A stretch of DNA of 58,786 nt from an uncultured Candidatus Saccharibacteria bacterium (GTDB taxonomy: Bacteria; Patescibacteriota; Minisyncoccia; Phycocordibacterales; UBA5272): contig CAYWEW010000008.1 of NCBI GenBank assembly GCA_964457775.1, positions 1 through 58,786 of the forward strand, written 5' to 3'. Positions 22,965-58,590 of the stretch are shown one piece after another. The number at the start of each line of letters is the position of its first letter. The first letter of the stretch is position 1. Position numbers and translations under genes: made by a program. Under the pieces are notes generated by a model. The model was not told the DNA's origin. It did no database searches and saw only the letters and a program-made list of their open reading frames with translations.

Positions 22965-22973
22965 AATGATTAG

Positions 22974-24005: not shown

Positions 24006-24030
24006 ATACTTATAAGTATACTACAAAATT

Positions 24031-25038: not shown

Positions 25039-25167
25039 GTTTTATATAATGATATCACCTCCTGTAAAAATGCCGTAGCTAATCCTGTGTATTTTATATT
25101 CATAATTATATCCCTGGTATAAAAATAAATAATTTAATATTAAGTGTGAGGATTATAAGCCGACTCA

Positions 25168-25995: not shown

Positions 25996-26030
25996 GGGTA
26001 TATTGTACTGTGGAAATGGAGGTGTAGCAA

Positions 26031-26188: not shown

Positions 26189-26351
26189 GCGGATTGGGTG
26201 AGATTCGTTCACAAAACTACCTCACTTCGTTCGAAGTAGTTTCGCGACCCCTATTCGAACCTCCGTAAACCAAAGCAGTTTGGTTTACTACCTTGTAAAC
26301 CGCACAGCAAATGAAAAATACCGAGCAGTAACTCGGTATTTTTCATTTGTG
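26189..26351 (-). repeat. tRNA-Ser-linked structured module, proximal copy (B)
   Basis: 26189-26207 matches tRNA-Ser 26351-26369 at 18/19. Core at 26241-26252. Hairpin at 26265-26288. Long hairpin 26300-26354 includes the tRNA's terminal CCGCA. Confidence 0.7.
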
Positions 26352-26438
26352 CGGATAGGGTGAGATTCGAACTCACGGTCCGATTGCTCAGACGACAGTT
26401 TTCAAGACTGTTGCTTTAGACCACTCAGCCACCTATCC
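26352..26438 (-). tRNA. tRNA-Ser (TGA), long variable arm, no encoded CCA
   Basis: GGATAGG acceptor, anticodon arm ACAGT-CTTGAAA-ACTGT, variable arm CGTCTGAGCAATCGGACC, T-arm GTGAG-TTCGAAT-CTCAC. Confidence 0.9.
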
Positions 26439-26531
26439 CTATAATCTTTCGATTAAGCGTTACTATATCATATTTTTATATTTTTTGAAACATTACATCA
26501 TTATATATATGTATGTTAAAATTAAATTATT

Positions 26532-26939
26532 ATGCGTTTCGTAATTAAATTTTTTGATAGATTAGAGGATCATGTTCGAGGAGGGCTTTCTAGATTTCCT
26601 TTAGTTTATTCACTTATAGGTGGCACTGGTGTAATTCTATTTTGGAGAGGTATTTGGCATACAGCAGATAACTTACAAGTAATGACATCTTGGGGTAAAG
26701 TACTTTTTTCTGGCCCTGGTTCTACTATTTTAGGTCTCCTTATACTGCTCATGACAGGTCTTTTTGTTTCTGTATTTATTGGAGATCAAATAATTATGTC
26801 TGGACTAAAGCATGATAAAAAATTAATTGAAAAATCAGAAGATGAAATAGAGGAAGAGTTAGTAGAATTACAAAAAGAAAAACAAATTCTACAAAAAATA
26901 GAAATTAGTTTGGAGAAAATGCAAGAGGACAAAAACTAA
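26532..26939 (+). CDS. small membrane protein with C-terminal coiled coil (hypothetical)
   Basis: 135 aa. Two TM helices, then a Glu/Lys-rich helix. Confidence 0.45.
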   Translation: MRFVIKFFDRLEDHVRGGLSRFPLVYSLIGGTGVILFWRGIWHTADNLQVMTSWGKVLFSGPGSTILGLLILLMTGLFVSVFIGDQIIMSGLKHDKKLIEKSEDEIEEELVELQKEKQILQKIEISLEKMQEDKN

Positions 26940-26941
26940 AT

Positions 26942-26975
26942 AATAAAAACCATGCACATGTGCATGGTTTTTATT
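26942..26975. terminator. bidirectional intrinsic terminator between convergent genes
   Basis: AATAAAAACCATGCA-CATG-TGCATGGTTTTTATT. Confidence 0.8.
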
Positions 26976-26987
26976 ATTTATTGAATT

Positions 26988-27923
26988 TTATTCCCAACTA
27001 AAACCTCTTCCGAAATGTCCCCAAGTGCATGTGTCTTTATATTTAACTTCATCTAACTTCAAATCCTTTCTTATTCCTTTTGGACTAAGATCGTACCCTG
27101 TAATTTCATTTTCTACTCCGTCGATAATTGCAACTGCCATGACTGGTTCACTCTTTCCGATTGCATATGCAATTTTTGTTTCGACTTCTTTTGCATTATG
27201 TTTCTTTAATAATTCAACTGCAATCTTTCGGGCCACATAAGCACCAGAGCGATCCACTTTTGTATAATCTTTACCTGAAAAAGATCCACCCCCTATTGTA
27301 TGCTCTGGGCCATAATTATCTACTATAAGTTTTCTTCCTGATAATCCAGTGTCAGCGTCGAATCCTCCCAAGTCCCATTCCCCTGCTGGATTAATGAGAT
27401 ACTCTTTTGCTTTAATTATTTTTTGGACGAGTGGGAGTAAATCTACATTCTTTGAATTTTGAAAACTGACCACTACTGTAGTAACTTCATCATTATCAAT
27501 AGTTACCTGCGTCTTGCCGTCATATGGATACACTTCAAAAACTTTTTGACATAGATTACGAGCGAGTTCATATTCAAGTGGAAGAAAAGTTTCTGTTTCA
27601 CTCGTTGCATAACCTTTCATAATTCCCTGATCCCCTGCACCACCTGTATCTACACCTTGTGCTATTTGTGGACTCTGTAATGAGATGTTACTCAACACTT
27701 TAAAATCATTTCCTACAATACTCTGCACCAAATCTTCTACATTTGGTTTTGACAATGATGTTACTTCGCCATTAATAGTAACCAAATTGTGTCCTCCCAT
27801 CACTTCGATTGCACATCGACTGTTCTTATCATTTTCTAAATATGCATCTAATATACTGTCTGCGATATAATCACATATTTTATCTGGGTGCATAGGACTC
27901 ACGAATTCTGCTGTTTTTATCAT
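26988..27923 (-). CDS. metK: S-adenosylmethionine synthetase (short form, 311 aa)
   Basis: SPMHPDKICDYIADSILD, GAGDQGIMKGYA, GGGSFSGKDYTKVDRSGAY. Confidence 0.9.
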   Translation of the reverse strand: MIKTAEFVSPMHPDKICDYIADSILDAYLENDKNSRCAIEVMGGHNLVTINGEVTSLSKPNVEDLVQSIVGNDFKVLSNISLQSPQIAQGVDTGGAGDQGIMKGYATSETETFLPLEYELARNLCQKVFEVYPYDGKTQVTIDNDEVTTVVVSFQNSKNVDLLPLVQKIIKAKEYLINPAGEWDLGGFDADTGLSGRKLIVDNYGPEHTIGGGSFSGKDYTKVDRSGAYVARKIAVELLKKHNAKEVETKIAYAIGKSEPVMAVAIIDGVENEITGYDLSPKGIRKDLKLDEVKYKDTCTWGHFGRGFSWE

Positions 27924-27934
27924 ACGTTTAAAAA

Positions 27935-28100
27935 TTAAAATTCCTCATTCACTTAAGATGAGGAAAGATAGAGATGACTAGTCTTTATCTTTCCATTTAA
28001 TACTTGCGTATTATCTGGCTGGATGTAGCACCTTCTTATTGCTAAGTGGTTGCTGATGGGTCATTGAGCCAGTTGCTCTCGCCACACTCTTGATAAATAA
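27935..28100 (-). promoter_or_regulatory. SAM-I (S-box) riboswitch with terminator, upstream of metK
   Basis: Minus strand reads UUAUCAAGAG-UGUGGCGAGAGCAACUGGCUCAAUGACCCAUCAGCAACC...AAGGUGCUACAUCCAGCCAGAUAA (P1 UUAUC/GAUAA). This is followed by hairpins 27962-27994 and 27941-27965 plus a U-run. Confidence 0.8.
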
Positions 28101-28186
28101 CTATTGCTAGTTATATTTTTATAATACACATAAAATAATAAAAAGTAAATTAATTAGTGAAAGCATTCAGTGTATACTCTTTAGAT

Positions 28187-28747
28187 ATGAAAAAAGTATT
28201 TATGATACATGGACTAGAAGGAACACCAAATGGCGGGTGGCGTCCTTGGCTTATGAGTGAACTACAAAAGATGGACATATATGCTTGTTCCCTATCATTG
28301 CCAAATGAGGCAAATCCGATTTGTGGTGAATGGATAGAAGAAATTAGTCGCCTGGTGGAAAGAAACAATGAAGATGAAATTTATTTAGTCGGCCACAGTC
28401 TTGGTGTTCCGACTATATTACATTACCTAGAACAAAAAACTTTAGGTACAGAAATTGCGGGAGCTGTCTTAGTTTCTGGTCCATCACAAAAAATAAATAT
28501 TGAAAAAATTGAGCACTTCCTCGATAAACCTTTTGATTTTGAAGCTATCACCTTAAAGTGCAGTAAATTCTCTGTTATTCATGGTGATGATGATTCTGTC
28601 GTCCCCCTTTCTGATGCAGCTTTTCTATCAGAAAAATTAAAATGTGATTTGGTAATTGTGCACGGTGGAAAACATTTAAATGGTTCTGCTGGGTTCACTC
28701 AACTTCCAGAATGTCTACAGGAATTACAAACGATGTTTCTAAGCTAA
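28187..28747 (+). CDS. alpha/beta hydrolase, YdeN/RBBP9-like serine hydrolase
   Basis: MIHGLEGTPNGGWRPWL...LVGHSLGVPTILHYLE (GxSxG)...IHGDDD. The ORF track starts at GTG 28157. Confidence 0.7.
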   Translation: MKKVFMIHGLEGTPNGGWRPWLMSELQKMDIYACSLSLPNEANPICGEWIEEISRLVERNNEDEIYLVGHSLGVPTILHYLEQKTLGTEIAGAVLVSGPSQKINIEKIEHFLDKPFDFEAITLKCSKFSVIHGDDDSVVPLSDAAFLSEKLKCDLVIVHGGKHLNGSAGFTQLPECLQELQTMFLS

Positions 28748-28788
28748 ACCTAGCCAAAAGCGTTAAAATAGTGTAGTATCATACAATC

Positions 28789-28860
28789 GCTCTCGTAGTT
28801 CAATGGATAGAATTCAAGTTTGCGGTACTTGCGATGCAGGTTCGATTCCTGCCGAGAGCA
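28789..28860 (+). tRNA. tRNA-Arg (GCG)
   Basis: GCTCTCG acceptor, anticodon arm CAAGT-TTGCGGT-ACTTG, T-arm GCAGG-TTCGATT-CCTGC. 72 nt, no CCA. Confidence 0.85.
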
Positions 28861-29050
28861 CAGAATACAAAAAGACCCCTCTTCTGAGAGGTCTTTTTGT
28901 ATTCTGTGCTCTCGGAGTACGACAACTGCTTGTCGTACGTCAGGAATCGAAAGTCCGGAGTATGTTTTTGTAGCAACAAAAACAACGAGGAGCGGGAGGC
29001 GAGAAATTTTTGTGACGACAAAAATTTACTTGTCGAAGATTCCTGCCGAG
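28861..29050 (+). repeat. tRNA-Arg(GCG)-linked structured module (divergent core)
   Basis: A 30-bp near-perfect palindrome (28852-28881 / 28886-28915) includes the tRNA acceptor 3' strand. Inverted T-arm copy CAGGAATCGAA at 28941-28951. Direct copy ATTCCTGCCGAG 29039-29050 = 28845-28856. Confidence 0.65.
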
Positions 29051-35110: not shown

Positions 35111-36811
35111 ATGACAATTGTCTTTAATGATGAAAAACAAAATAATCAGTTAGCTGACCTTCGTAAAGATGAAGAAGAAGAACTGGTTAAGATACTTTCT
35201 GATAAATATAATTTACCTTATATAGACTTGCGAGGTCTTGCTCCTGAACCAGATGCATTACTTATACTAAAAGAAGATGAGTCTCGGGCGGCGGGACTAG
35301 TTGCATTCAAACTCGTCGGTAGAAAATTATATGTGGCGACATTGTCACCTGAAAATGAAAAAATGGAGGCCTTACTTAAACCATTAGAAGAAAATAATTA
35401 CGAACTTCTTTTGTTTATGTGTTCACACGCCTCCCTTGAACATGCTTATTCTCGCTACGCTGACCTTCACATGGGTCTAAAGGTTGAAAATGGAATGCTT
35501 GAGCTCACACCAGAAAAAATGGTTAAGTTAATGGCGAGTTTCAACACTGTACCTGAGATGACGAAAGTTTTTGACGATCTAGCAAAATCAATAATAGTTT
35601 ATAAAACGACTCGTCTTATAGAACTAATTATTGCTGGTGCACTTAAGTTTGGTGCGAGTGATATACACATAGAACCAGAAGAGCACAAGGTGCGTTTGAG
35701 ATATAGAATGAATGGTGTACTTCAAGATATATCTTTCTTTAATTTTGAAGACCTAAAAAGTATAACTAGTCGTTTCAAATTACTCGCGGGATTAAAACTT
35801 TCAACTAGTGCCATGGCTCAAGATGGACGTTTTGGTATTAATCTTGGTGACGTTGAAGTTGATGTTCGTGTTTCGGTTATTCCTGGAAATTATGGTGAGA
35901 GTTTCGTTATGCGTTTACTTGATCCAAGAAATGCGGTGACCGACCTTGGTAAAATCGCCTTCCCGGAAAAATTACGCGAGGCCGTGAAATATGCTCTAGG
36001 AAAACCAAACGGGGTAATTCTTACAACTGGACCAACAGGAAGTGGAAAGACAACGACTTTGTATGCTTTTCTTTATACGACTTATAATCCAGAAATAAAA
36101 ATCATTACGATTGAAGACCCTATTGAATATCATTTAGAAGGAATAAATCAAACACAAGTAAATGTAAAAAAGGGTTATACATTCGTGGCAGGATTACGTG
36201 CTGCCCTTCGTCAGGACCCTGATGTAATTATGGTTGGTGAAATTCGTGATGAAGATACTGCAAAAGTTGCAATCAACGCCGCTCTTACTGGTCACCTTGT
36301 ATTCTCAACCCTTCACACCAATAATGCTGCTGGTACAATTCCCCGACTTATTGATCTAGGAATAAATCCAAAAGTGCTTGCGAGTGCCCTTTCACTTTCT
36401 CTTGCTCAACGTCTTGTAAGAAAATTATGTAATGAATGTAAACAAAAGTATGAAACAAATGAAAAAGAGGCACGAGTTATAACTAATGTATTAGGTGAAA
36501 TGAAAACTTCTGGAAAGATAGAATCAATGTTGGGACACTCACCAGAACTTAGTTACAATCTTTTTCATGCGGTTGGGTGTTTAAGCTGTGCCGGAAGTGG
36601 CTACAAAGGGCGTATTGGAATATTTGAAGCTGTAGTTATGAATGCTGAGGTTGAAAAGGTTCTAATCACTAATCCAAGTGAAAGAGAGATTGTTATTGCT
36701 TCAAAAAATCAAGGAATTCCATCACTTCGCGAGGATGCTATACTTAAGGTGTTGGAGGGAATCACCTCCTTTGATGAAGTTTCTCGCGTAGTTGATTTGT
36801 ACGCTGAATAG
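35111..36811 (+). CDS. pilB: type II/IV secretion ATPase, PilB/GspE family
   Basis: GPTGSGKTTT Walker A, DPDVIMVGEIRD, GHLVFSTLHTN, and a tetracysteine motif CNECK...CLSCAGSGYKGR. Confidence 0.88.
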   Translation: MTIVFNDEKQNNQLADLRKDEEEELVKILSDKYNLPYIDLRGLAPEPDALLILKEDESRAAGLVAFKLVGRKLYVATLSPENEKMEALLKPLEENNYELLLFMCSHASLEHAYSRYADLHMGLKVENGMLELTPEKMVKLMASFNTVPEMTKVFDDLAKSIIVYKTTRLIELIIAGALKFGASDIHIEPEEHKVRLRYRMNGVLQDISFFNFEDLKSITSRFKLLAGLKLSTSAMAQDGRFGINLGDVEVDVRVSVIPGNYGESFVMRLLDPRNAVTDLGKIAFPEKLREAVKYALGKPNGVILTTGPTGSGKTTTLYAFLYTTYNPEIKIITIEDPIEYHLEGINQTQVNVKKGYTFVAGLRAALRQDPDVIMVGEIRDEDTAKVAINAALTGHLVFSTLHTNNAAGTIPRLIDLGINPKVLASALSLSLAQRLVRKLCNECKQKYETNEKEARVITNVLGEMKTSGKIESMLGHSPELSYNLFHAVGCLSCAGSGYKGRIGIFEAVVMNAEVEKVLITNPSEREIVIASKNQGIPSLREDAILKVLEGITSFDEVSRVVDLYAE

Positions 36812-36816
36812 ATTAT

Positions 36817-36868
36817 AGTCGAAAGTCTATAAAGTCAAAAATCCATAAAGTAACTTTGGACTTTAAAC
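36817..36868. repeat. empty AAAGTC-iteron palindromic element
   Basis: AGTCGAAAGTCTATAAAGTCAAAAATCCATAAAGTAA is followed directly by the inverted CTTTGGACTTTAAAC. The left arm is near-identical to 4574-4610. Confidence 0.6.
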
Positions 36869-36889
36869 TATCACTTTCTTTTAAATAAA

Positions 36890-37315
36890 ATATTAGCTAC
36901 GAGGCGCAACAGATTTTTGAGACCAAGATGTACGAGTATCGAGAAGCTTGGCTTCGAAGAGTTCCGTAGCTAGAAAGCGAGGGAACAAAACATTTCAGCA
37001 AAAATCTGTTGCAACAAAGTAGATGATGTTTTATTGGAAATGAAAAAACCCATATACCTCTAAGCAACCCCTTGGTGAAGAATAATCCTTCGTGAGGATA
37101 GGCACAGTACGTAACAAGTACGACCAGACCGTCCTTCGAAATAGAAAATGGGAGAAACTCCCGATTGTTTAGAGATATATAGGTTCTGACAAAGATTCAT
37201 ACGTCGTTTGTTCGTTAACAAAAATCATTATGTACTTTGTAGGAAAGAGGGACGGCTGTTTTTTCAGCATCACCAATTGGTGAATTTTCACTTCTACGTC
37301 TCTCCTACAAAATAC
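36890..37315 (+). ncRNA. candidate large structured RNA of unknown class
   Basis: No ORF. Helices: 36894-36901/36965-36972, 36906-36919/36999-37012 (14 bp, crossing the first, so pseudoknot topology), 37058-37067/37165-37174 (with a G-U pair), 37238-37254/37297-37310, plus local hairpins. Confidence 0.35.
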
Positions 37316-37407
37316 ACATCGATTTTCATTTATTGACAAAATCCGTATGAACTGTATCTATTATATCATATATAAAACTTTTGTCAAATACTTTTTTATA
37401 ACCCAAA

Positions 37408-38391
37408 ATGACCCCTTTAGACCCTACAATTGAACTCGAAGAAACCAGACATTTAGACAGTACTCTTCGACCTGAGAAATTTTCTGAATATATTGGTCAG
37501 GAAACCATAAAAAAGAACCTCCATATACTCCTTACAGCAGCACGCGAGCGTAATACTCCACCAGAACACATACTTTTATATGGTCCGCCAGGACTTGGAA
37601 AGACTACACTTGCTCATCTAATCGCAAAGGAGTTAAATGCGAACTTAAAATTATCTAGTGGTCCAGCAATTATGAAAGTTGGGGACTTGGCTGCTATTTT
37701 AACCAACCTCACCCCGGGTGATATTTTGTTTATTGATGAAATTCATCGGCTTAATAAAATGATTGAGGAAGTGCTTTATCCAGCAATGGAGTCAGGTAAA
37801 TTAGATATTGTTATTGGTAAGGGTCCGTCCGCCCGTACTATACAACTAGACCTTCCACCTTTTACATTAATCGGTGCAACGACTCGTATATCACTTCTGT
37901 CATCCCCTCTTCGTTCACGTTTCTCAGGAGGCACTTATCGTCTTCAATATTATAACGAGGATGAAATAGCAACAATAGTAGAAAACAGTGCGAAGATTTT
38001 AGGAATAACTATCCCAAATGACGCTGCGCTTGAAATAGCAAAGCGTTCAAGATTCACTCCACGTATTGCTAACTATTATCTTAAACGTGCTCGTGATTAT
38101 GCTCAGGTACATAAAGCAATTATTGATAAAGACGTAGTTGATACATCCCTCGCATTACTTGAAATTGATGAGTTCGGTATTGGCATATCAGAAAGAATGG
38201 TATTGGATGCTCTCGTTAATACATTTAATGGCAACCCTGTCGGTATTAATACGTTAGCTGCATCTACCGGTGAGGAAGAGGCAACCATTGCTGATGTTAC
38301 GGAGCCGTATCTTCTTCAAATCGGAATGATAGAAAGAACTCCTCGTGGTAGAAAGGCTACAGAAAAAGCAATTCTTCATTTTAAAAAATAA
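37408..38391 (+). CDS. ruvB: Holliday junction DNA helicase RuvB
   Basis: LRPEKFSEYIGQE, GPPGLGKTTLA, ILFIDEIHRL, TLIGATTR. Confidence 0.92.
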   Translation: MTPLDPTIELEETRHLDSTLRPEKFSEYIGQETIKKNLHILLTAARERNTPPEHILLYGPPGLGKTTLAHLIAKELNANLKLSSGPAIMKVGDLAAILTNLTPGDILFIDEIHRLNKMIEEVLYPAMESGKLDIVIGKGPSARTIQLDLPPFTLIGATTRISLLSSPLRSRFSGGTYRLQYYNEDEIATIVENSAKILGITIPNDAALEIAKRSRFTPRIANYYLKRARDYAQVHKAIIDKDVVDTSLALLEIDEFGIGISERMVLDALVNTFNGNPVGINTLAASTGEEEATIADVTEPYLLQIGMIERTPRGRKATEKAILHFKK

Positions 38392-39902: not shown

Positions 39903-40006
39903 AGTCTAAAGTCCTTAAAGTTAAAAGTTGTCAAGTAAGTAAAAAACAAGAAACATTTGGTTTCTTGTTTTTACTTTATACTTTACAGACTTTTTACTTT
40001 CGAACT
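39903..40006. repeat. AAAGTC-iteron palindromic element with central hairpin
   Basis: Forward array 39903-39945 (TAGTCTAAAGTCCTTAAAGTTAAAAGTT...). Hairpin CAAGAAAC-ATTTGG-TTTCTTG. Inverted array 39968-40006, ending in CTTTCGAAC. Confidence 0.6.
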
Positions 40007-40037
40007 AGTAAGTTCGCGGCTTGGCCGTAAATTAATT

Positions 40038-50291: not shown

Positions 50292-51110
50292 TTAATAAAC
50301 GTGGAAGTGCCTGTTTCCTCCAGGTTCATCCCAAAAAATATACCCATGTAATCCCCACTTTACAGGACTGCCTGAAATATTAGGCGTTCCATTTTTTTTC
50401 ACATATTGATACAAAGAGTCGCTTTCTGATCTTAAACGAAGGTCAACAGGTCGTTTGCCAACACCATGAGTTCTGTGTCCTGGCTCGGTCCCTCCCGTTA
50501 TTACTGCCTCACAGTTACATTCTCTTTTTAAAGTAATCAACATATTTAATGTTTCCTCAGGAAGTCCTCCGAGGTTTGTACAGCTTGGTTTTGATTCCTT
50601 CATTTGCGCCTCTGTGCAAGGTTCATTGTTCCAACCTATTCCTGCATCAGACATTCTTTTCCGAGCAGAAGTTTCGTCTGAGTTTGCGGTGCTTGGCTTC
50701 ATGCCTTCACCAGTTGGGTTCACTTCTGGTATAACTCCTGTTGCTCCACCTCCACCGAATTCGCCTGCAGAAGACCTAAGCGCGTCCAACCCCACGTCTC
50801 CACTTAGCAAATCTTTGTTAACTGTAGCTAAAATAAGCCATAAAGAAAAAACACCAACTAAACCTAATGTTGTTTTCTTAAATATCTCATTAGACTTAGT
50901 TATTCCATGTTGTGATGCTTCCATTCTAAATAACCCCGCTTGAGCATATTTTGTAGAAGCTACTACGACAATAACTACAAAGAATAATGTATATAGAAAT
51001 GAAGTTGAAGTAAATAGTGAAGGGGTTGCTCCGGTGAAGGATGGAACGGTACCTCCAACGGACTTCATAAAAGCTTCTTCTAATGGAACATATGATGTTG
51101 GTGTGGCCAT
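50292..51110 (-). CDS. membrane-anchored LAS-type (peptidase M15/VanY-like) cell-wall hydrolase
   Basis: The C-terminus ITGGTEPGHRTHGVGKRPVDLRL...NRHFHV fits the H-x-D...HxH zinc motif of DD-/LD-peptidases. Start set at MATPTSY, because the tracked N-terminus translates the AAGTCCA repeat. Confidence 0.55.
   Translation of the reverse strand: MATPTSYVPLEEAFMKSVGGTVPSFTGATPSLFTSTSFLYTLFFVVIVVVASTKYAQAGLFRMEASQHGITKSNEIFKKTTLGLVGVFSLWLILATVNKDLLSGDVGLDALRSSAGEFGGGGATGVIPEVNPTGEGMKPSTANSDETSARKRMSDAGIGWNNEPCTEAQMKESKPSCTNLGGLPEETLNMLITLKRECNCEAVITGGTEPGHRTHGVGKRPVDLRLRSESDSLYQYVKKNGTPNISGSPVKWGLHGYIFWDEPGGNRHFHVY
50772..51056 (-). repeat. 285-bp near-identical direct repeat, copy 2
   Basis: See copy 1 (48591-48875). 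Confidence 0.9.
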
Positions 51111-51132
51111 ATGAGTATTAGTATACTTTTTT

Positions 51133-51194
51133 AAGTCCAAAGTCCAAAGTCCAAAGTCCAACTTTTGACTTTATAAACTTTAAAGACTTTCGAC
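51133..51194. repeat. empty AAAGTC-iteron palindromic element inside the T4SS cluster
   Basis: (AAGTCCA)x4 at 51133-51160, followed by the inverted CTTTTGACTTTATAAACTTTAAAGACTTTCGAC. Confidence 0.6.
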
Positions 51195-52174
51195 TACTTT
51201 CTTGTATCAAATATCAACTCTAGATTAGTAACAGTTTTTTGCAGCCTACGTTTTGTGTTCTCAACCGTAATTGAAAGTCTACGAACACCGTAACTATCTT
51301 CTTTTGGGCGCATAGAAAGAAGAGTTCCTCCGAGTGGAGTAATAGGAAGACCATCCAACGCCCAATCATACGAAACTGTACCCTCCAAACCCTTCTTTGT
51401 TGAAAGATAAAATGGCTCAAGTGAAAGTGTAAAATCCTTCGTCGTTTCAAAACGTTTATTAATTACAGAAACGAAATTTGTCCCAAGAATATCATCATAA
51501 GTATATACAAGAGGCATAACATCGTGTTGGTATACATCTAATGACTTCGTAGCAGATACTCCATATGGTCCATTAACCATCACTTTCACAGTAGTAAAAG
51601 GTCTTAAAAAATCTACTTCAATTAATGCGGACTGTCTTCCTATTCCAGATAAACTGTCTACAAATTCACCACTTACATACCAAGAATATGATAAAGAAGA
51701 TGGTGAAATAATTTGGCCCCTCTCACTAATATTTGGTATAGCAACGAATCTAACGACAGCACCTTCCCCAGGCAATGATCTACCCTCATAAAACAGAGGA
51801 ACGTAGCTCTCCGGTGTTTCATAAATAATATCTACGGACTCCGGTACGATTGCAATGTCTACCTCGAATACCTCATTATCTGCAGTTACAGCTTTTACAC
51901 GAACCGGTATTACAGTCCCAGCCTGGCCAGTTTTTAAGGTTAATTTTTTTTCACCCAAACCACGCAACACCTCTTTACCGTTTACAGACCATGCTATTTG
52001 AGCAGTGTTAACATTAAATAAATAACTTACAAGTGTCGCAGTCACAGAAGTGTATGGGGTAGGATTTTTGGGTTCAAGGGAGACAGCTGCTTCTGATCCT
52101 GCAAAAGAAACTATAGGTGAAACAAAAAAAGTAGTTAATATTATTGTATAAATTATTAATAAATATTTTTTCAT
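51194..52174 (-). CDS. secreted hypothetical protein (T4SS cluster)
   Basis: Start at MKKYLLIIYTIILTTFFVSPIVSFAGS (signal peptide). Beta-rich. Confidence 0.45.
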   Translation of the reverse strand: MKKYLLIIYTIILTTFFVSPIVSFAGSEAAVSLEPKNPTPYTSVTATLVSYLFNVNTAQIAWSVNGKEVLRGLGEKKLTLKTGQAGTVIPVRVKAVTADNEVFEVDIAIVPESVDIIYETPESYVPLFYEGRSLPGEGAVVRFVAIPNISERGQIISPSSLSYSWYVSGEFVDSLSGIGRQSALIEVDFLRPFTTVKVMVNGPYGVSATKSLDVYQHDVMPLVYTYDDILGTNFVSVINKRFETTKDFTLSLEPFYLSTKKGLEGTVSYDWALDGLPITPLGGTLLSMRPKEDSYGVRRLSITVENTKRRLQKTVTNLELIFDTRK

Positions 52175-52181
52175 AATATTT

Positions 52182-53999
52182 TTACAATCCCTTTGATTGA
52201 GCAACTTCATCCTTCATTTGCTTTATTTTAAGTAATTGTGAAGGGTCACTAGTGATAATTTGATCTTCGGTGTAAGATGCTACAACTTTAATAGCCACGT
52301 GTTTTAATCCTGCGAAGAATATCCCCTCCCCAACACCAGATTCAAGTAACAAGAACTTTTCTTCATTAGTTAAGTTAAAAGTTTTTTGAACAATATCAAT
52401 AGACGAAGGAGATTGCTTTAAAAGAAGCTGAATTGAGGAGTTGGTGATAATAGGTAAACCATATGGTGATTTTAGGAAATCTCCCACATCTTGAGTAATA
52501 GTTGCGAGACCGAGATAATATTTTCTTCCACGTTTTGCAAGACCAAACAAGAAAGATGCCGTATCGTCATTCTTCATCATAATCCACGCCTCATCCACAA
52601 TAAGTAAACGCTTCTTGATATTCTTTCTAACAGCATTCCAAATATAATGAGTAATAATATACATTGCCACCGGCTTAAGTTCATCTTCCATATCACGAAT
52701 AGAAAAACAAACCAGTTTTTTATTTATATCAACATTCGATGGTTTGTTAATAAACCCAGACCACGTCCCTTTCGTATATTTTGACAAACGCAATACCAAA
52801 TCCTCAGAACCATCAATCCCACCTAGTACCATTTCGAAATCAGAAAGTAGTGGTGGTTCTAGTTTTGTAAAATCTGATTCACCGTTAATATCCTTCAAGG
52901 CATATGTTTCTGTAATTGCTTGGTCGACAATTGCATCTTCTTCAGGACTAAGACCCCCCAACATAACACGCAATAGTCCCACTAAGTTAACGATGTTTGA
53001 ACGAAGAACTTCCGATGGAGATTCGTCTGCTGTTGGATGTGGTAAATCAAAAGGATTGATATGGTGTTCACTGGTTAGAGAAATATCAAAATATCTTCCA
53101 CCAACAGACTCAGCAAGGAATTCATATTCTCTTTCTGGATCGATAATTAGAACTTCTGTATCGAACATTAGTGTGCGCAAAATTTCAAGCTTTGTAAGAT
53201 AACTTTTACCAGAACCGGACTTTGCAAACACAATAGAGTTATAGTTTTCGAGTGAAAATCTATCGAACAAAATTAAACTTCCATTGTGACGATTTAGACC
53301 GTATAATATTCCTTTATCAGAAGAAAGATCGAAGGAAACAAATGGGAAGAAAGATGAAAGTGGTGACGTGTTAAGCTTGTTTTTGATGCCCAAGCTATCT
53401 TGTCCAAGAGGAATAGTAGAAAGGAACCCAGCATCTTGTTGGAAAAGTGAAGGTTTAACATAAACAAGACGACTCTCAAGAATGTTTTTCATTTCATTTT
53501 CTACTTTGTCTATCTCTGCGTCGTTCTCACCATATAAAGAAATATAAAGAGATACTTCGAACATTTTTTCTTGTGCTTGAGTAAGTCCGTCACGCAAGTC
53601 TTCTAAGTCTTGGAATGCCACATCAAGAGTTGGGTCACGAACAAGACCCTTTTCTTCACGGGTCATAATCTGACTCTCCACCTCAGCAACTTTTCTTTGA
53701 AATGTTTTCATTACCTCCCCTGTGTTTAGTGGTGTAATATGAATGGCAATATCAAAAACCTTGTCTAAGTTAACAATAGGAGAAAGCCAATTGTCAGTTA
53801 AAAATCTTGGATATTGAATAACAAAATATGAGCGTACAACAACCGTACCCAAGTTGAGCCCCTTAGGAGATATGCCAAGAGCACTCGGTGCAATAACGTC
53901 CTTCAATTGCATCTCAGCAATTTTGTACACCTGTTCTGGTAGAACTGCGGTTACAGGTGAAGCTGGTTTATTTGAGTTTAAAAAGTCGAATAGTCCCAT
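52182..53999 (-). CDS. virB4: VirB4/TrbE/PrgJ-family type IV secretion ATPase
   Basis: 605 aa. Walker A FAKSGSGKSYLTK, Walker B LLIVDEAW, TQ...D sensor block (LATITQDVGDF). Confidence 0.85.
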   Translation of the reverse strand: MGLFDFLNSNKPASPVTAVLPEQVYKIAEMQLKDVIAPSALGISPKGLNLGTVVVRSYFVIQYPRFLTDNWLSPIVNLDKVFDIAIHITPLNTGEVMKTFQRKVAEVESQIMTREEKGLVRDPTLDVAFQDLEDLRDGLTQAQEKMFEVSLYISLYGENDAEIDKVENEMKNILESRLVYVKPSLFQQDAGFLSTIPLGQDSLGIKNKLNTSPLSSFFPFVSFDLSSDKGILYGLNRHNGSLILFDRFSLENYNSIVFAKSGSGKSYLTKLEILRTLMFDTEVLIIDPEREYEFLAESVGGRYFDISLTSEHHINPFDLPHPTADESPSEVLRSNIVNLVGLLRVMLGGLSPEEDAIVDQAITETYALKDINGESDFTKLEPPLLSDFEMVLGGIDGSEDLVLRLSKYTKGTWSGFINKPSNVDINKKLVCFSIRDMEDELKPVAMYIITHYIWNAVRKNIKKRLLIVDEAWIMMKNDDTASFLFGLAKRGRKYYLGLATITQDVGDFLKSPYGLPIITNSSIQLLLKQSPSSIDIVQKTFNLTNEEKFLLLESGVGEGIFFAGLKHVAIKVVASYTEDQIITSDPSQLLKIKQMKDEVAQSKGL

Positions 54000-54000
54000 A

Positions 54001-54639
54001 TTATGATTGTGCCACTTTAGGAGCCTCTCTATTTTGCTCGCTAGGATTAAATAATTTATAAAAAAGCTCCACCACTTCCTCAGTTCCTAATTTTTGTGCA
54101 CGTAATCCAAACCTCGATAGTCCTTGCATTACTGTCGATACACGTTGTTCTAATTGTATACGAGAAGCATCGAACGAGGAAAGGCTTTCTTTAGAAGTAG
54201 AGTCTTTACTACTAAAAGAGGAAAGAAGTGATGAATTATTGTTATTACCTACAACTTGGAAATAAGGGATGGTTATAAAGAAATGTTTTGTCATAATATT
54301 ACTTTCTTCTGTGAATTTGGTAATAAAGGCAATATATTCGTGTATTTGTATTTTTAGAAGATCTTCTTTCACTTCCTTACTACGTGTTTGGAGCAGGTCA
54401 ATGTACGGTTTTATGTTAAGTCTTCTTGATTCAACAAAAAGTTGAATATCAAAATCAAGTGAATTTAAAAATGCTTGAAATTGTACAAGAATAGCTTGTT
54501 GTTCATCTTCACTTTTAAGTGCAAGGTTAAGAGAGTTGGTTATGAGAATTGCACGTAGTTCCCCTGTTTTTAATATAACAACACCATCACGAATACGCTC
54601 GATAGGTACAAATTCCTGAGTTGCTGTTCCTTTAGCCAT
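54001..54639 (-). CDS. T4SS-associated hypothetical protein
   Basis: 212 aa. Its stop lies 1 nt before the virB4 start. EFVPIERIRDGVVILKTGELRAIL...SEDEQQAIL recalls the N-termini of conjugative ATPase partners. Confidence 0.4.
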   Translation of the reverse strand: MAKGTATQEFVPIERIRDGVVILKTGELRAILITNSLNLALKSEDEQQAILVQFQAFLNSLDFDIQLFVESRRLNIKPYIDLLQTRSKEVKEDLLKIQIHEYIAFITKFTEESNIMTKHFFITIPYFQVVGNNNNSSLLSSFSSKDSTSKESLSSFDASRIQLEQRVSTVMQGLSRFGLRAQKLGTEEVVELFYKLFNPSEQNREAPKVAQS

Positions 54640-54694
54640 ATAGATTCTAGTATAGCGTAGAAAGTTACATCTTCAATGGTAAAACTACCCTATA

Positions 54695-55132
54695 CTAATT
54701 ATTATCACCACTCTTTTTATCATGTTCAAAAACATCAAGCCCTAAAGACAAGTCGTGTATTCTATCTCTATCTGTTTTTGAAATAATCATTTGCTTGGTT
54801 GTGTCAGCAACAATTTTATCTATTTTAGAATCTTGTGTTGATGCATCTGGGTTTGGTTGTTTCCATGTGAAGACTTTTGCTCCAGTGTAGTAAGTAAATG
54901 CACTCTCAAGTAATTCTCCAAAAGATCTATTGTTATATTTAAAAAATGCTAGAGCAAGGAATAGTCCAGCAACGGGAATAATAACAATAATAGCAACGAC
55001 TTTTATTGGAATAAAAGTCCATACAATAAAAGATAACCCCCCAGCCCCAACAATATAACCAAATTGTTTAAGTGTAAGAGGGCCAATGATTTTGTCCTCC
55101 ATGTCGATGAATTGTGGTACTCGGAATTGCAT
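54695..55132 (-). CDS. PrgI/VirB3-like small membrane protein
   Basis: MQFRVPQFIDMEDKIIGPLTLKQFGYIVGAGG followed by two TM helices, the pattern of Gram-positive PrgI-type proteins. Confidence 0.55.
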   Translation of the reverse strand: MQFRVPQFIDMEDKIIGPLTLKQFGYIVGAGGLSFIVWTFIPIKVVAIIVIIPVAGLFLALAFFKYNNRSFGELLESAFTYYTGAKVFTWKQPNPDASTQDSKIDKIVADTTKQMIISKTDRDRIHDLSLGLDVFEHDKKSGDNN

Positions 55133-55156
55133 AATTCTAGTGTATCACACTAGAAC

Positions 55157-55580
55157 AAGTCGAAAGTCCACAAAGTCTGTAAAGTCAAAAGTAAATAAAT
55201 TCATAAAGTCTTAATAAAACCGGAGAGCATTTTTGAAATCTCTACGGCCTCATTATACATATTTTGAAAGTCATTTTCTGAAATGTATTTTAATTCTAGA
55301 GCAAGGTAAAGCATTGATCTGACTTCACCACACGAACCTTTTGCAATAAACAAAAAATGACTAAGTTCTCTGTCCCCTTTTCTTTCAAAACCCTCAGCTA
55401 TATTATTCATTATTGATACACTAGCTCGTTGTATTTGGTCTTTGAACCCATAATCCTTATTATTTATGAAGTGTTCGTATATACTTTTTGATAAAAGTTT
55501 TGACTTTTGCCAAGCAATTATATCTTCAAATTTTTCTATTTTCATGTACTTACTTTTGACTTTACAGACTTTTTGACTTT
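55157..55580. mobile_element. AAAGTC-iteron palindromic element carrying a four-helix-bundle gene
   Basis: Left array AAGTCGAAAGTCCACAAAGTCTGTAAAGTCAAAAGTAAA (55157-55195). Right inverted array TACTTACTTTTGACTTTACAGACTTTTTGACTTT (55547-55580). Confidence 0.5.
55201..55545 (-). CDS. four-helix-bundle protein (23S rRNA intervening-sequence protein / Avd-like family)
   Basis: 114 aa. FEDIIAWQKSKLLSKSIY...QIQRASVSIMNNIAEGFER....F..IAKGSCGEVRS. Confidence 0.8.
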   Translation of the reverse strand: MKIEKFEDIIAWQKSKLLSKSIYEHFINNKDYGFKDQIQRASVSIMNNIAEGFERKGDRELSHFLFIAKGSCGEVRSMLYLALELKYISENDFQNMYNEAVEISKMLSGFIKTL

Positions 55581-55588
55581 ATTGAATA

Positions 55589-56338
55589 TTAGTCTTCCGC
55601 CACTTCTCTATATGGATCAAGGTTGTAATGAGTTGGTGCAACACTATAGGTAGCTGTTTTTTGTACCGCAGCCACAGTTTCTTTTCCCTCTTCTCCGAAC
55701 ATAAAACTTTTAAGAGCAATATTAGAATCAAGAGTGTTAGATTCCTCAACTTTTTTAATAGAACTTATTTGTTCCTGTATATGTTTCAATCTCTGCTCAA
55801 TTTCTTCATCTTTTGGAATATTTCCTAATATTTGAAGTTGTTCAAGTAATTGTGAGCGCGAACCAGGAGTTATTACAGAGGCTTTCTTTGGCACACCAGA
55901 GGTCTGCGGGATTTTAAGCGCACTCGTCGCTTTGGTTGTGTCCATTATTTCTTTACGTAATTCGTCCGGCGTTCTCTCCCCTTTAAATTCAAGCTTGGTA
56001 ACCTCATCATCAGATTTTCCAAGAGTAATCATACGAGCTTTTTCGAAGATACTTGTTTCAAGTTCTTTTGCTACAAGTATCGCATCTTCTTCTGTAAGTT
56101 CTAATAAATCTTTAAGAGCAAGAACAACGTTCTTTGGATCAAGTGCCCCTATTAATACATAAGTTATTATGTTAGACAATATGACATATTTTCCAATAGG
56201 AATTTTATGAATTTGACCTATGGTTGATGAAGCCTCTTTTAGAGCCCCGCCTTTTATCATTGTTTTAATTTCAACAGAAGATTGTTCAAATAGTTTTTTT
56301 AATTCCTCGGTATTTGAAATAATGTATGGTGTATTCAT
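55589..56338 (-). CDS. hypothetical protein (T4SS cluster)
   Basis: 249-aa acidic, helical ORF. No motif recognised. Confidence 0.45.
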   Translation of the reverse strand: MNTPYIISNTEELKKLFEQSSVEIKTMIKGGALKEASSTIGQIHKIPIGKYVILSNIITYVLIGALDPKNVVLALKDLLELTEEDAILVAKELETSIFEKARMITLGKSDDEVTKLEFKGERTPDELRKEIMDTTKATSALKIPQTSGVPKKASVITPGSRSQLLEQLQILGNIPKDEEIEQRLKHIQEQISSIKKVEESNTLDSNIALKSFMFGEEGKETVAAVQKTATYSVAPTHYNLDPYREVAED

Positions 56339-56352
56339 ATATTAATTACATT

Positions 56353-58590
56353 TTAAAATATAGAAGCAACATCATTCGTGTGCGAATGGTTTGTCTGTGA
56401 TTGTTGGGATGAGCTTTGAGAACTGGTATTAGCTCTTTTTTGTATTTCATCAATATTTTTATCCGTATTTGTTGCTTGAGTTTGATCCTGAGCCTTAAGT
56501 TTTTGTTTCAAAGAATCAGATTGATTAGAATAGTATCTTTGTTTATCTTCATTTGTCATTTTACTATAATCTTCGAGATTCATTTTATTAACATTATCAA
56601 TATTAGTATTTATACTACTAGCTTCCAGCTCATCTCTTTTATATGCAGCATCCTTTACGTCGTCAGATTGTTTTCCATAAAAAATCTGTCTTGATTTATT
56701 GGAAAGATTATCATATTGATCTATTTTTTTATTTTCGGCCTCCGCCTTTGCTCTATCAGATTCAATCATTTGATTTTGCATAGCCTGATCTTTTTCTGTG
56801 TAAAACTTTTCTTGTTTTGCTTCCCCTGTTCTTTTATCATACGCAGCCATCTTTTTATCTTGTGCTTCCGCCTGCTCTCTATCCGCTGAAGCAAGAGCAT
56901 TACCAACCTTCTCCTTATTTTGTGCAAACCCAAGAGCTTTTGAAAACTTGTTACCACCAACCATTCCTTGACTTGCAAAAAAGTTCTGCTTTGCCTTAGC
57001 CCCATCTTCATTAGTAGTCCCGTCAGCATTTTCTGTTTTTATTCGAGCATAACGTTCCTTTCTGTCTTGTATTTTACTATCAAGCTCCTTCTCGTAGCCC
57101 ATCTTACTACCTGTTCCCATGCCACTACTTAAACCGAGTTTTTTTGCACCAGTTTGTACATAGCTAGAATTACGAGCATCGAAACTACTCTTAGCAATTG
57201 AATTAGACATATTGTAAGCATGACGTCCAAGAACACCATCTTGATTATTGGTTACCCATTTACTGTCACGTATAGAAGCTGCCGCTCTACCCATTGTTCC
57301 ACGTGCAAGCAAACCTGCTCCACCACTTGCAAGTCCAAGTGCTGCACCTCCTGCGAAACCACCTACCTTACCCATTGCATTTGTTGCCATTTGTCCGATA
57401 CCACCTGCAGTTTCTTTTGTAATCTTGAGCATGATGTGTAACATAATAAGCATCATTGCTAAATTAAAGAACTCTACAACAGTAGCATCAGCAGTCCCGC
57501 TTCCTGATTTCGCTGCTCCACCAAATATACCTAAAAATTTTAGAGTAAGAGCAAGCATAATCATAAACACCGGCCCAACAGCAAGTTGCTCAAAGAATAT
57601 TTTACGCAACTTAACTGCCTCATCCCCCAGTCTCGGTATAACGCTATCAATAAAAAGTATAGGTGATGCAATAATTATAAATACAAGAGCAATAGTTCTC
57701 ATTAATATAATACCCGTTATCATAAAAAATATATAAGCTGCATATAATACAAAAACAACAGCCATAAGTGCACCAGGTATACTACTAATACTAGTTACCA
57801 TACTTGTGCTGATGCCGGTCGATTCCTTTGTTGCACTAAGCATAAGACCACCTAGTCCTAAGTTGGTCATTATTAATGAACCAGCATTACTATTACCTGT
57901 TCCTGTTAAAGCATCATTTCCAACGGCACTTGCGTAAATGTTAAGTGATACTACATTAGATATATCAACAGCAGTTCTTACTAGTGGATATGAAAAGTTA
58001 ACGAATAGTGCGAATATTACAACCCAAGGAATATACTTTTCAAAAGTCTCATCTTTACCAATTATATACATGAGCCCAAGCCAAAGACCCGCAAACACCA
58101 CGAACAGTGAAACTATTTGTCTTACCACAATCCATATTGGATAAAGAGTATCTGGTGCCCAACTTTTAAAATCAAGTATACCTACTTGAATAGCATAGTT
58201 AATCATATTAGCCGAAATCCACACCAAGAAACCTGCAATCTCAAGTAAAGTAATTTTAATTATATTTGATATCAAACAATTCCACCCAGCTAAAGTCAAA
58301 AGACTTTCCGAACAAGATGGTTTGACACCACCAGGCGGACCTGATGTTCCTACTGGTTTTGCTCCTGCACTAATCAAAGCATCTGTTGTCGCACTTCCAG
58401 CAACTTGCTGCTGGTCTAAACTAAGATCAGCTGCAGGTGCGTTTGAGGCAGGGTCATTATCATCTACACAACCAGTACCACTCATCATTTGTCCACTTGG
58501 ACACGGATATTCTTGAGCGAAACTTTTATTTGGTACCAAAAACAAGCTAAAACATAGAAATACGACAAAAATTAGCCCGAGCTTTTTCAT
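56353..58590 (-). CDS. VirB6/TrbL-like polytopic membrane protein with long Lys/Glu/Gln/Asp-rich C-terminal tail
   Basis: 745 aa: signal peptide, Cys-containing N-terminal segment, about 6-7 TM helices (aa 90-430), then about 300 aa of low-complexity charged sequence. Confidence 0.55.
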   Translation of the reverse strand: MKKLGLIFVVFLCFSLFLVPNKSFAQEYPCPSGQMMSGTGCVDDNDPASNAPAADLSLDQQQVAGSATTDALISAGAKPVGTSGPPGGVKPSCSESLLTLAGWNCLISNIIKITLLEIAGFLVWISANMINYAIQVGILDFKSWAPDTLYPIWIVVRQIVSLFVVFAGLWLGLMYIIGKDETFEKYIPWVVIFALFVNFSYPLVRTAVDISNVVSLNIYASAVGNDALTGTGNSNAGSLIMTNLGLGGLMLSATKESTGISTSMVTSISSIPGALMAVVFVLYAAYIFFMITGIILMRTIALVFIIIASPILFIDSVIPRLGDEAVKLRKIFFEQLAVGPVFMIMLALTLKFLGIFGGAAKSGSGTADATVVEFFNLAMMLIMLHIMLKITKETAGGIGQMATNAMGKVGGFAGGAALGLASGGAGLLARGTMGRAAASIRDSKWVTNNQDGVLGRHAYNMSNSIAKSSFDARNSSYVQTGAKKLGLSSGMGTGSKMGYEKELDSKIQDRKERYARIKTENADGTTNEDGAKAKQNFFASQGMVGGNKFSKALGFAQNKEKVGNALASADREQAEAQDKKMAAYDKRTGEAKQEKFYTEKDQAMQNQMIESDRAKAEAENKKIDQYDNLSNKSRQIFYGKQSDDVKDAAYKRDELEASSINTNIDNVNKMNLEDYSKMTNEDKQRYYSNQSDSLKQKLKAQDQTQATNTDKNIDEIQKRANTSSQSSSQQSQTNHSHTNDVASIF

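Follow-up and report, generated by a model that had tools for sequence, protein, structure and literature searches.

Why does a small gene of the family so far known from ribosomal-RNA intervening sequences (IVS) sit inside a secretion operon, framed by mirror-image arrays of a short repeat (AAAGTC)? The locus lies in a 58,786-nucleotide stretch of DNA (contig CAYWEW010000008.1, assembly GCA_964457775.1) from an uncultured Candidatus Saccharibacteria bacterium, which we refer to as the window. The initial annotation had proposed that a four-helix-bundle gene of the IVS or Avd-like type occupies the loop of a long potential stem built of 7-9 bp iterons, and that the unit resembles a portable cassette inserted into an otherwise contiguous type IV secretion system (T4SS)-like operon. 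Our analysis confirmed the observation and supported each element of this interpretation, with one correction: we count five gene-less versions of the element in the window rather than three. The features are collected in the table below.

Table. Features of the iteron-flanked cassette, its host operon and the gene-less palindromes in the window.
Feature	Positions	Strand	Description
Cargo gene	55201-55545	-	114-aa four-helix-bundle protein (PF05635 / TIGR02436, "S23p / 23S rRNA IVS protein" family)
5′ arm (gene orientation)	55546-55580	-	Four iterons, AAAGTC x3 then AAAGTA, ending 6 nt before the ATG; on the + strand TACTTT 55551 and GACTTT 55558, 55567, 55575
3′ arm (gene orientation)	55156-55200	-	Five iterons, TACTTT, GACTTT x3 and GACTTG, starting 7 nt after the stop codon; on the + strand CAAGTC 55156, AAAGTC 55163, 55172 and 55181, AAAGTA 55188; outermost part GACTTTCGACTTG
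Inverted-repeat arms	55169-55200 / 55544-55575		32 nt, 91% complementary
Inverted-repeat core, left copy	55172-55194		AAAGTCTGTAAAGTCAAAAGTAA on the + strand; perfect, 23 nt
Inverted-repeat core, right copy	55550-55572		AAAGTCTGTAAAGTCAAAAGTAA on the - strand; perfect, 23 nt
Host gene upstream of the insertion	55589-56338	-	249-aa protein with no Pfam family; stop codon about 8 nt from the 5′ arm
Host gene downstream of the insertion	54695-55132	-	PrgI-family protein of the T4SS-like operon (PF12666, E 2.8e-11)
Host-derived spacer	55133-55155	-	Small palindrome CTAGTGTGATACACTAG just before the PrgI ATG; probably holds the PrgI promoter and a very short leader; not part of the cassette
Gene-less palindrome	4573-4662		AAAGTC/GACTTT with a central G+C hairpin, between convergent genes; terminal TAG supplies the stop codon of gene 4660-5070 (-); fold z = -6.0
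Gene-less composite	5071-5247		AAAGT array, the TTTACGGCCAAGCCG motif, a small hairpin, then an ACTTT array ending in TAGACTA
Gene-less palindrome	36816-36879		Short AAAGTC/GACTTT palindrome
Gene-less palindrome	39903-40005		Surrounds a terminator-like hairpin; right arm matches the cassette core at 21 of 23 positions; fold z = -4.2 / -5.6
Gene-less palindrome	51133-51196		(AAGTCCA)x4 facing GACTTT-type units, inside the same T4SS-like operon; terminal TAG is the stop codon of gene 51194-52210 (-); fold z = -5.4

We first asked what the gene encodes. The protein matched PF05635 with an E-value of 5.2e-36 and 123.5 bits (cut-off 33.8) over profile positions 1-106 of 106, and TIGR02436 with 115.2 bits (cut-off 24). 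A search against solved structures identified the pentamer 2GSC (E 6e-12), and by homology to it the protein is inferred to form a ring of four-helix bundles, following the published description of that structure (cited in PMC4990558). The conserved family motif G..R....S...N..E(G) (PMC3936711) is present as GFKDQIQRASVSIMNNIAEGF and aligns to the same motif of 2GSC. Comparison with relatives gave a pN/pS of 0.07-0.16, showing that the protein is under purifying selection. No credible promoter was found upstream of the gene, the only good match lying inside the ORF. Searches with PADLOC and PHROGs gave only marginal hits, lending no support to a defence or phage role, and a scan of viral contigs found no relative.

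The arrays flanking the gene have iteron spacings of 7, 9 and 8 nt on one side and 7, 9, 9 and 7 nt on the other. The inverted core was not matched in 100 shuffles of the window. The minus-strand RNA 55133-55600 folds with the ORF in the loop of a stem of about 38 bp (z = -5.7). Clusters of at least three AAAGT/ACTTT units number nine in the window, against a mean of 0.3 in shuffled sequence, and occupy only about 6 of about 60 intergenic regions, so they are not a generic intergenic feature. Rfam identified nothing in or near the cassette and no rRNA in the window, and an E-value search of 36700-37450 returned only chance-level hits.

To establish whether the unit is an insertion, we compared relatives with the same operon. 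In four of these (loci L088, L090, L091 and L092) the 249-aa gene is followed by the PrgI-like gene with a 67-105-nt spacer and no arrays; relatives with the empty site have TGGTATACT 6-7 nt before the ATG. A fifth, L089, has a 41%-identical PF05635 gene at the same site, in the opposite orientation and with its own TTAGG-type inverted repeat, while L093 has a gene-less AGTTAGG palindrome there. These relatives are closer in their operon proteins (PrgI 61-67% identity) than the distant CPR genomes that do hold the AAAGT-type gene at this site (PrgI 32-46%, four-helix-bundle protein 64-69%). The genomes with the empty site are only 53-57% identical in the neighbouring protein, and the only relatives with high DNA identity (L001-7, L119-121) all carry the insertion, so the ends of the roughly 424-bp unit could not be fixed to the base and no target-site duplication could be defined. 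Mobility is therefore inferred only from presence or absence and from differing contexts. Relatives that carry the gene at this position also carry the arrays, and the host-derived spacer is conserved in two of them (L006 and L119). Copies with 82% protein identity sit between glycosyltransferase genes.

We next examined 80 loci chosen by protein similarity alone (59-81% identity, many phyla). The best inverted repeat is made of AAAGT[CT] units in nearly all of them, with spacings of 7, 8 or 9 nt and iterons per arm peaking at 4-5. AAAGT is 25-35x enriched within 75 nt upstream and ACTTT 20-30x downstream; TAAAGT is 54x enriched and present in 63 of 80 loci. The median inverted-repeat score is 15, against 7 for 380 control windows (p = 7e-39). 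Of 66 genes, 57 are co-directional with both neighbours, with spacers of about 50 nt, consistent with read-through transcription. Gene-less arrays recur in the flanks of related loci, with 32 clusters in 370 kb around AAAGT-type loci against 0 in 69 kb of loci without such a gene.

The iteron sequence changes with the protein subfamily. Two PF05635 genes 2.6 kb apart in one genome (L037) carry AAAGTC and CGTGAAA arrays, respectively, and 13 of 16 distant plasmid-borne members have other inverted heptamer arrays (GGTGACA, TAGGGAG, GGGAAAA, AGGAGTC, AAGGTTY and GAGGACG). One distant gene, L102, lies inside a 23S rRNA gene. A strict one-to-one pairing of iteron and subfamily could not be upheld, however, as the second Bacteroidota subfamily drifts from GTGAAA to AGTTAAA, overlapping AAAGTT; the iterons of the two Bacteroidota/CPR subfamilies thus overlap, and specificity is not sharply separated everywhere.

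The closest described elements are the ORF-bearing IVS of 23S rRNA in Coxiella burnetii and Leptospira. In Coxiella, an S23p ORF in an element of 428-444 nt lies within a 28-bp stem with three to four tandem GACAGAT heptamers just upstream of the ATG, varying in number between strains, in sense orientation and without a promoter of its own, and the stem is cut by RNase III (PMC4990558). The element described here shares this ORF family and anatomy and is thus an extension of it, rather than wholly new. It differs in lying in a protein-coding operon (in L087, a tRNA operon) instead of an rRNA helix, in its AAAGTC iteron, and in the strong purifying selection on its protein, as the Coxiella ORF is reported to be decaying and probably untranslated. 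We found no description of non-rRNA PF05635 cassettes or of AAAGT arrays in full-text literature searches, which did not extend to what Ralph & McClelland 1993 (PMC47033) say about IVS copies outside rRNA. REPIN/RAYT systems likewise comprise a gene flanked by inverted copies of a short repeat that is also scattered through the genome as gene-less inverted doublets in intergenic regions (PMC3116915, PMC3337134). RAYT, however, is a Y1/HUH transposase with known chemistry, whereas Pfam gives only PF05635 here, a 114-aa helical bundle with no known catalytic site; the arms are arrays of 4-5 iterons instead of single REP hairpins, and the gene is often present in several copies and subfamilies per genome. 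As in MITEs, there are terminal inverted repeats, presence or absence at orthologous sites and copies at unrelated sites, but no transposase is encoded in the element and no trans-acting enzyme was identified.

We favour, with moderate confidence, the view that this is an IVS-type cassette outside rRNA, transcribed by read-through from the host operon. By inference, the two arms pair in that transcript into a duplex of 23 bp or more, and RNase III, if present in this organism, would cut the duplex as it does in the homologous Coxiella IVS, releasing the ORF loop and uncoupling the flanking cistrons. The iterons may be recognition sites for the element's own predicted pentameric protein, with about one iteron per subunit, on RNA or DNA; such recognition would maintain or spread both gene-bearing and gene-less copies, in a relationship like that of REPINs and their RAYT gene. 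The related protein Avd is a positively charged pentameric barrel that binds structured RNA, including stem-loops (10.1101/2023.10.23.563531, PMC10053308). Several observations temper this model. Mismatches in the arms of 64 loci show no strand bias (68 G-U-compatible against 61 A-C), giving no sign that RNA pairing as such is selected, and complementarity may simply follow from inverted iterons. A few members (L030, L059, L100 and L110) have arrays in direct orientation, which cannot form a stem. No nuclease, recombinase or reverse transcriptase travels with the gene, and the insertion is old and stable in this lineage, sitting at the same site in relatives with 95-96% protein identity (pS about 0.2).

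A less likely alternative is a DNA-level element, in which the arrays are transposon-type ends with several protein-binding sites each, as in Tn7 or Mu, recognised on double-stranded or hairpin DNA by the four-helix-bundle protein together with an unknown host or trans-acting enzyme, RNA pairing and RNase III cleavage being incidental. The unbiased mismatches and direct-orientation arrays fit this reading, as do the gain and loss of whole iterons between close relatives, the MITE-like gene-less copies, and three array termini beginning with TAG/TA, which could be end or target sequence. However, no catalytic protein is encoded in the cassette and a trans-acting enzyme would have to exist in many phyla, while the sense-orientation bias and the occurrence inside rRNA and tRNA operons point to a role for the transcript; the homologous IVS is experimentally an RNase III substrate.

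It is more doubtful still that the unit is an immobile accessory gene with conserved cis-regulatory arrays, such as an autoregulatory operator or a stability or translation-control stem, inherited vertically and lost often. The shared position in close relatives and upstream of PrgI in several distant CPR genomes, sites shared within orders (for example tdh|kbl in Bacteroidales, and wzm|wzt in several groups) and the purifying selection are compatible with this. Against it, the nearer relatives have empty sites, a different subfamily occupies the same site in the opposite orientation, and copies with 82% identity sit in unrelated operons. Furthermore, proteins 60-80% identical occur across Patescibacteria, Bacteroidota, Bdellovibrionota, Gammaproteobacteria, Spirochaetota and KSB1 with unrelated neighbours (90 of 151 neighbour proteins are singletons), and arrays also exist without the gene or next to other cargo.

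A host-specific intergenic repeat family (REP- or terminator-like), in which the gene happened to land, is suggested by the five gene-less arrays, two of which wrap terminator-like hairpins, but is already contradicted by the same iteron framing the same protein subfamily in 80 species of many phyla, by the array-free empty sites and by the differing iterons of two subfamilies in one genome. A remnant of a diversity-generating retroelement (DGR) with an orphan Avd is suggested by weak similarity to Avd models (PHROG 3206, E 6.5e-4; NF033474, E 0.007), but was rejected, since the Avd equivalog scores only 16.7 bits against a cut-off of 80, none of the 8 neighbouring proteins spanning 50292-58590 is a reverse transcriptase, and neither the window nor the related loci show template and variable repeats next to the gene. 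Flanking iteron arrays are not a described feature of DGRs.

A more speculative possibility, which we consider unlikely but not excluded, is that PF05635 proteins, a family of more than 14,000 clusters at 50% identity with no known function outside DGRs, are the sequence-specific iteron-binding factors of a previously unrecognised class of bacterial mobile repeats, each pentamer reading about five tandem 7-9-nt units in the way a TRAP ring reads its triplet repeats. Gene-bearing cassettes would be the masters, gene-less palindromes their non-autonomous offspring, and ORF-bearing rRNA IVS simply copies that landed in rRNA. The offspring could possibly include the long-unexplained cyanobacterial STRR arrays, apparently tandem 7-nt repeats in intergenic regions of Nostocales (Mazel et al. 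1990). The cyanobacterial PF05635 genes examined here are framed by arrays of this kind (GGTGACA, TAGGGAG, TAGGGTG and AGGAGTC), although no link between the two is described in the papers we could search.

For annotation, the arms can be mistaken for mini-CRISPRs or terminators, the insertions split operons, and array termini supply stop codons to neighbouring genes. The ORF of the rRNA IVS has had no assigned role since the early 1990s, and its family is among the commonest unexplained small genes in Bacteroidota, cyanobacteria and Patescibacteria; binding of its own iterons is now a directly testable hypothesis for the protein. If the gene is regularly part of a compact unit with matching iteron arms, inserted in sense orientation into operons, several scattered observations fall under one explanation: rRNA IVS, the "23S_rRNA_IVP genes inside cas operons" (PMC3936711), exactly as seen with arrays in our loci L097, L099 and L100, apparent CRISPR association scores, and heptamer repeat arrays.

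The sequence is organised as proposed in the initial annotation, which had placed a four-helix-bundle gene between inverted AAAGTC iteron arrays. Iteron spacings are 7-9 nt. A repeat search of the window reported 32-nt arms that are 91% complementary, and the 23-nt core AAAGTCTGTAAAGTCAAAAGTAA is perfect on both sides and is never matched in 100 shuffles of the window. The minus-strand RNA of 55133-55600 folds with the whole ORF in the loop of a stem of about 38 bp (z = -5.7). The arrays are not a general intergenic feature: clusters of at least three AAAGT/ACTTT occur 9 times in the window, against a mean of 0.3 in shuffles, and touch only about 6 of about 60 intergenic regions. We count five gene-less palindromes of the same iteron, rather than the three reported in the initial annotation. 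Array ends also appear to have replaced or supplied the 3′ ends of neighbouring genes: the terminal TAG of the array end (TAGTCGAAAGT...) is the stop codon of two of them, and a third runs 16 nt into an array.

Features of the window and of related loci (loci retrieved from other genomes carry the prefix L)
Sequence	Coordinates	Strand	Feature
Window	55201-55545	-	Four-helix-bundle gene, 114 aa
Window	55156-55193	+	Left array: CAAGTC, three AAAGTC, AAAGTA
Window	55551-55580		Right array: TACTTT, three GACTTT
Window	4573-4662		Gene-less palindrome
Window	5071-5247		Gene-less palindrome
Window	36816-36879		Gene-less palindrome
Window	39903-40005		Gene-less palindrome; right arm matches the cassette core at 21 of 23 positions
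Window	51133-51196		Gene-less palindrome, in the same operon as the cassette
Window	4660-4662		Terminal TAG of array; stop codon of gene 4660-5070 (-)
Window	51194-51196		Terminal TAG of array; stop codon of gene 51194-52210 (-)
Window	4573-4588		Part of an array overlapped by gene 3008-4588 (+)
Window	5129-5159	+	Motif of about 32 nt
Window	40003-40033	-	Motif of about 32 nt
L006	3503-3535		Motif of about 32 nt, just upstream of the four-helix-bundle gene (also in L005 and L007)
Window	55133-55155		Small palindrome region before the PrgI ATG
Window	36890-37400		About 500 nt without a long ORF, between an array and gene 37408-38391
Window	27982-28099	-	SAM riboswitch (60.3 bits)
Window	19351-28861		Interval holding six tRNA genes
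L005/L006	3965-4160		Broken PrgI-like gene
L029	4197-4700		AAAGTC array and PemK/MazF-like ORF
L036	2472-3460		Arms bracketing two genes
L070	2021-3987		Two AAAGT-type cassettes flanking one gene
L087	2883-3469		Cassette (3001-3342) between two tRNA genes
L072	4976-5057		Expanded arm
L084	4643-4761		Expanded arm
L113	downstream of 954		Expanded arm

The protein matches PF05635 over the full profile (E 5e-36) and TIGR02436 with 115 bits against a cut-off of 24, but falls short of the DGR Avd equivalog, with 16.7 bits against 80. The nearest solved structure is XCC0516 (2GSC, E 6e-12), described as a pentamer of four-helix bundles (cited in PMC4990558). The gene is under purifying selection, with pN/pS of 0.07-0.11 against relatives 95-96% identical in protein and 0.16 against an 82% relative. 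The family is very large, with 14,353 clusters at 50% identity (E <= 1e-3).

The cassette is an insertion. Its neighbours are a 745-aa protein and a 249-aa protein on one side and, on the other, a PrgI-family protein, a TraC-like protein and a VirB4-like ATPase. A metagenome scan with the 249-aa protein gave seven relatives. In four of these (L088, L090, L091 and L092) the 249-aa gene is followed directly by the PrgI-like gene, with a spacer of 67-105 nt and no arrays. In a fifth (L089) the same spacer holds a different PF05635 gene (41% identity) in the opposite orientation, flanked by its own inverted repeat, TTAGGTCGTTCTTCGTTAG / CTAACGAAGAACGGCCTAA, while in L093 it holds a gene-less AGTTAGG palindrome. 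These genomes are closer to the window in their operon proteins (PrgI 61-67% identity) than five distant CPR genomes that do carry an AAAGT-type gene just upstream of their PrgI gene; in those five, PrgI is 32-46% identical but the four-helix-bundle protein is 64-69% identical. Close relatives with 95-96% protein identity keep the insertion at this site, and copies with 82% identity sit between glycosyltransferase genes. The site therefore shows all four states: empty, filled, filled by another subfamily, and arms only. In L088, L089, L091 and L092 the PrgI-like gene is preceded by an extended -10-like TGGTATACT/TGGTATAAT only 6-7 nt from the ATG, which suggests a leaderless or nearly leaderless transcript; the window has TGTGATACA at the same place, inside a small palindrome. 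In the relative 96% identical in protein (L005/L006), the PrgI-like gene breaks off after about 70 codons and is followed by convergent rRNA-adenine methyltransferase and UvrD genes, reflecting either a rearrangement next to the cassette or a mis-assembly.

To ask how widespread the unit is, we scanned one genome per species using the protein alone, so that the arrays played no part in the selection. This returned 80 loci with 59-81% identity, from Patescibacteria, Bacteroidota, Bdellovibrionota, Gammaproteobacteria, Spirochaetota, KSB1 and Marinimicrobia. In nearly all of them the best inverted repeat between the two 120-nt flanks is built from AAAGT[CT] units. AAAGT is 25-35x enriched in the 75 nt upstream and ACTTT 20-30x in the 75 nt downstream, both falling to a background of 0.002 per nt beyond 200 nt. 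An unbiased 6-mer count put TAAAGT first upstream (54x, 63 of 80 loci) and ACTTTA first downstream (62x, 65 of 80 loci). The median inverted-repeat score is 15, against 7 for 380 control windows in the same loci, and 52 of 77 loci exceed the control maximum (p = 7e-39). At least 2 iterons are present on each side in 68 of 80 loci, with spacings of 7, 8 or 9 nt; the arrays end about 13 nt before the ATG and begin about 10 nt after the stop codon. The number of iterons per arm peaks at 4-5. Some arms are greatly expanded, with 11 to 17 or more tandem units (L072, L084, L113). In L100, about 15 AAAAGCT units lie upstream and about 10 AAAAGCC units downstream, in direct orientation. These expanded arms resemble microsatellite or STRR-like arrays.

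Of the 66 loci with both neighbours within 400 nt, 57 have the gene co-directional with both, with spacers of about 50 nt; neighbour genes were called here by a simple longest-ORF rule. The host operons are unrelated: wzm|wzt, epimerase|wzm, tdh|kbl, the CPR 249-aa|PrgI site, glycosyltransferases and RmuC. Of 151 neighbour proteins, 90 have no homologue among the other neighbours. In L087 the cassette lies in sense orientation between two tRNA genes on the same strand, inside a stable-RNA operon, as the classical IVS does. In L070, two AAAGT-type cassettes (68% identical to the query, close to each other) flank a single 408-aa gene, 1.3 kb apart. In the window, no promoter-like site precedes the gene.

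Distant PF05635 genes on plasmids (27-50% identity) have the same layout with other iteron units. These are GGGAAAA in Nostoc (L095) and Geminocystis (L101, between a parA-like gene and parB), AAGGTTY in Riemerella (L096), GGTGACA in Anabaena 90 (L097, between cas6 and cas4), AGGAGAT in Picosynechococcus (L099, between cmr2 and cmr3), TAGGGAG in L103, TAGGGTG in L106, AGGAGTC in L104, L105, L107 and L108, and GGCAGAR in L109. Overall, 13 of the 16 are inverted, 2 are direct (L100 and L110) and 1 is unclear (L098). One member, from Azospirillum (L102), lies inside a 23S rRNA gene in sense orientation (Rfam 2529 bits) and carries inverted GAGGACG/GATGACA heptamers. The published Coxiella IVS has the same anatomy, with an S23p ORF in a 28-bp stem of terminal inverted repeats, three to four tandem GACAGAT heptamers before the ATG whose number varies between strains, and RNase III cleavage in the stem (PMC4990558). 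One Bacteroidota genome (L037) carries two PF05635 genes 2.6 kb apart, one with AAAGTC arms and one with CGTGAAA arms. Relatives of the second gene, all in sense orientation inside metabolic operons, have GTGAAAW, GGTGART, GTTAAAG/AGTTAAA or GGTRAAC arms. Thus, the iteron follows the element lineage rather than the host, although it drifts gradually and is not sharply distinct between the two nearest subfamilies.

Outside the gene regions, the 80 loci hold 32 AAAGT/ACTTT clusters in 370 kb, about 5 per 58.8 kb, which is similar to the window. Many of these are + then - doublets. There are none in 69 kb of loci that lack an AAAGT-type gene, although this control set is small and richer in G+C. 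Arrays also accompany other cargo. In L029 an AAAGTC array directly precedes a 144-aa PemK/MazF-like toxin ORF (PF02452, E 7.5e-12) at the wzm|wzt junction, where other genomes hold the four-helix-bundle cassette; no matching array lies downstream. In L036 the arms bracket a 156-aa SET-domain-like ORF (NHSCEPN motif) followed 4 nt later by the four-helix-bundle gene, and the cassette can therefore carry extra cargo. Arms gain and lose whole iterons between close relatives, and in L005-7 the 5′ arm is interrupted by a 37-nt motif, which also adjoins two gene-less arrays in the window. This motif (about 32 nt, ATTTACGGCCAAGCCGYGAAyyTrCTrrTTC) has two mini-hairpins (CGGC..GCCG and GAAyy..rrTTC) that show compensatory changes. 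It always adjoins an AAAGT array and is found in no other locus than those tabulated; comparison of L119, a relative with high DNA identity, with L006 suggests that it is a small insertion into the array. The stretch next to one array in the window that lacks a long ORF contains several G+C-rich paired-looking segments but gave nothing in Rfam at gathering threshold, or at E <= 1 beyond chance hits, and may be an unannotated RNA or a decayed gene. The SAM riboswitch and tRNA genes are ordinary features.

Whether the arms act in RNA or in DNA is less clear. The sense-orientation bias, the absence of an own promoter, the occurrence in rRNA and tRNA operons and the experimental RNase III precedent favour a role for the transcript. 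Against this, mismatches in the arms are no more often G-U-compatible on the sense strand (68) than on the antisense strand (61), and four members have direct arrays that cannot pair. A copy's own arms match each other better (score 14.8) than they match the arms of other loci (11.1), and both exceed the random value of 7, but lineage-specific iteron variants could explain that difference.

The unit is built like the ORF-bearing rRNA IVS, and is inferred to work like it, but lacks that family's defining location, as no rRNA is present in the window. It resembles REPIN/RAYT systems in logic but not in protein, and it is not a DGR. PF05635 genes have previously been noted inside cas operons (PMC3936711) and in CPR rRNA insertions (PMC11270868), without the arms. 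We found no description of the non-rRNA cassette, or of the rule linking gene and iteron, in the literature searched, which did not include a key 1993 Leptospira study.

This compact inserted unit is conserved across phyla, with dispersed gene-less copies and a constrained protein. We infer that the gene is transcribed by read-through and that the arms pair in the transcript. A perfect 23-bp RNA duplex would be expected to be an RNase III substrate, and cleavage would free the ORF loop and separate the neighbouring cistrons. We further infer that the iterons are bound by the protein, a pentamer by homology, given that this gene is the only thing that travels with the arrays between phyla, that Avd of the same fold binds structured RNA (10.1101/2023.10.23.563531), and that the arms hold 4-5 units.
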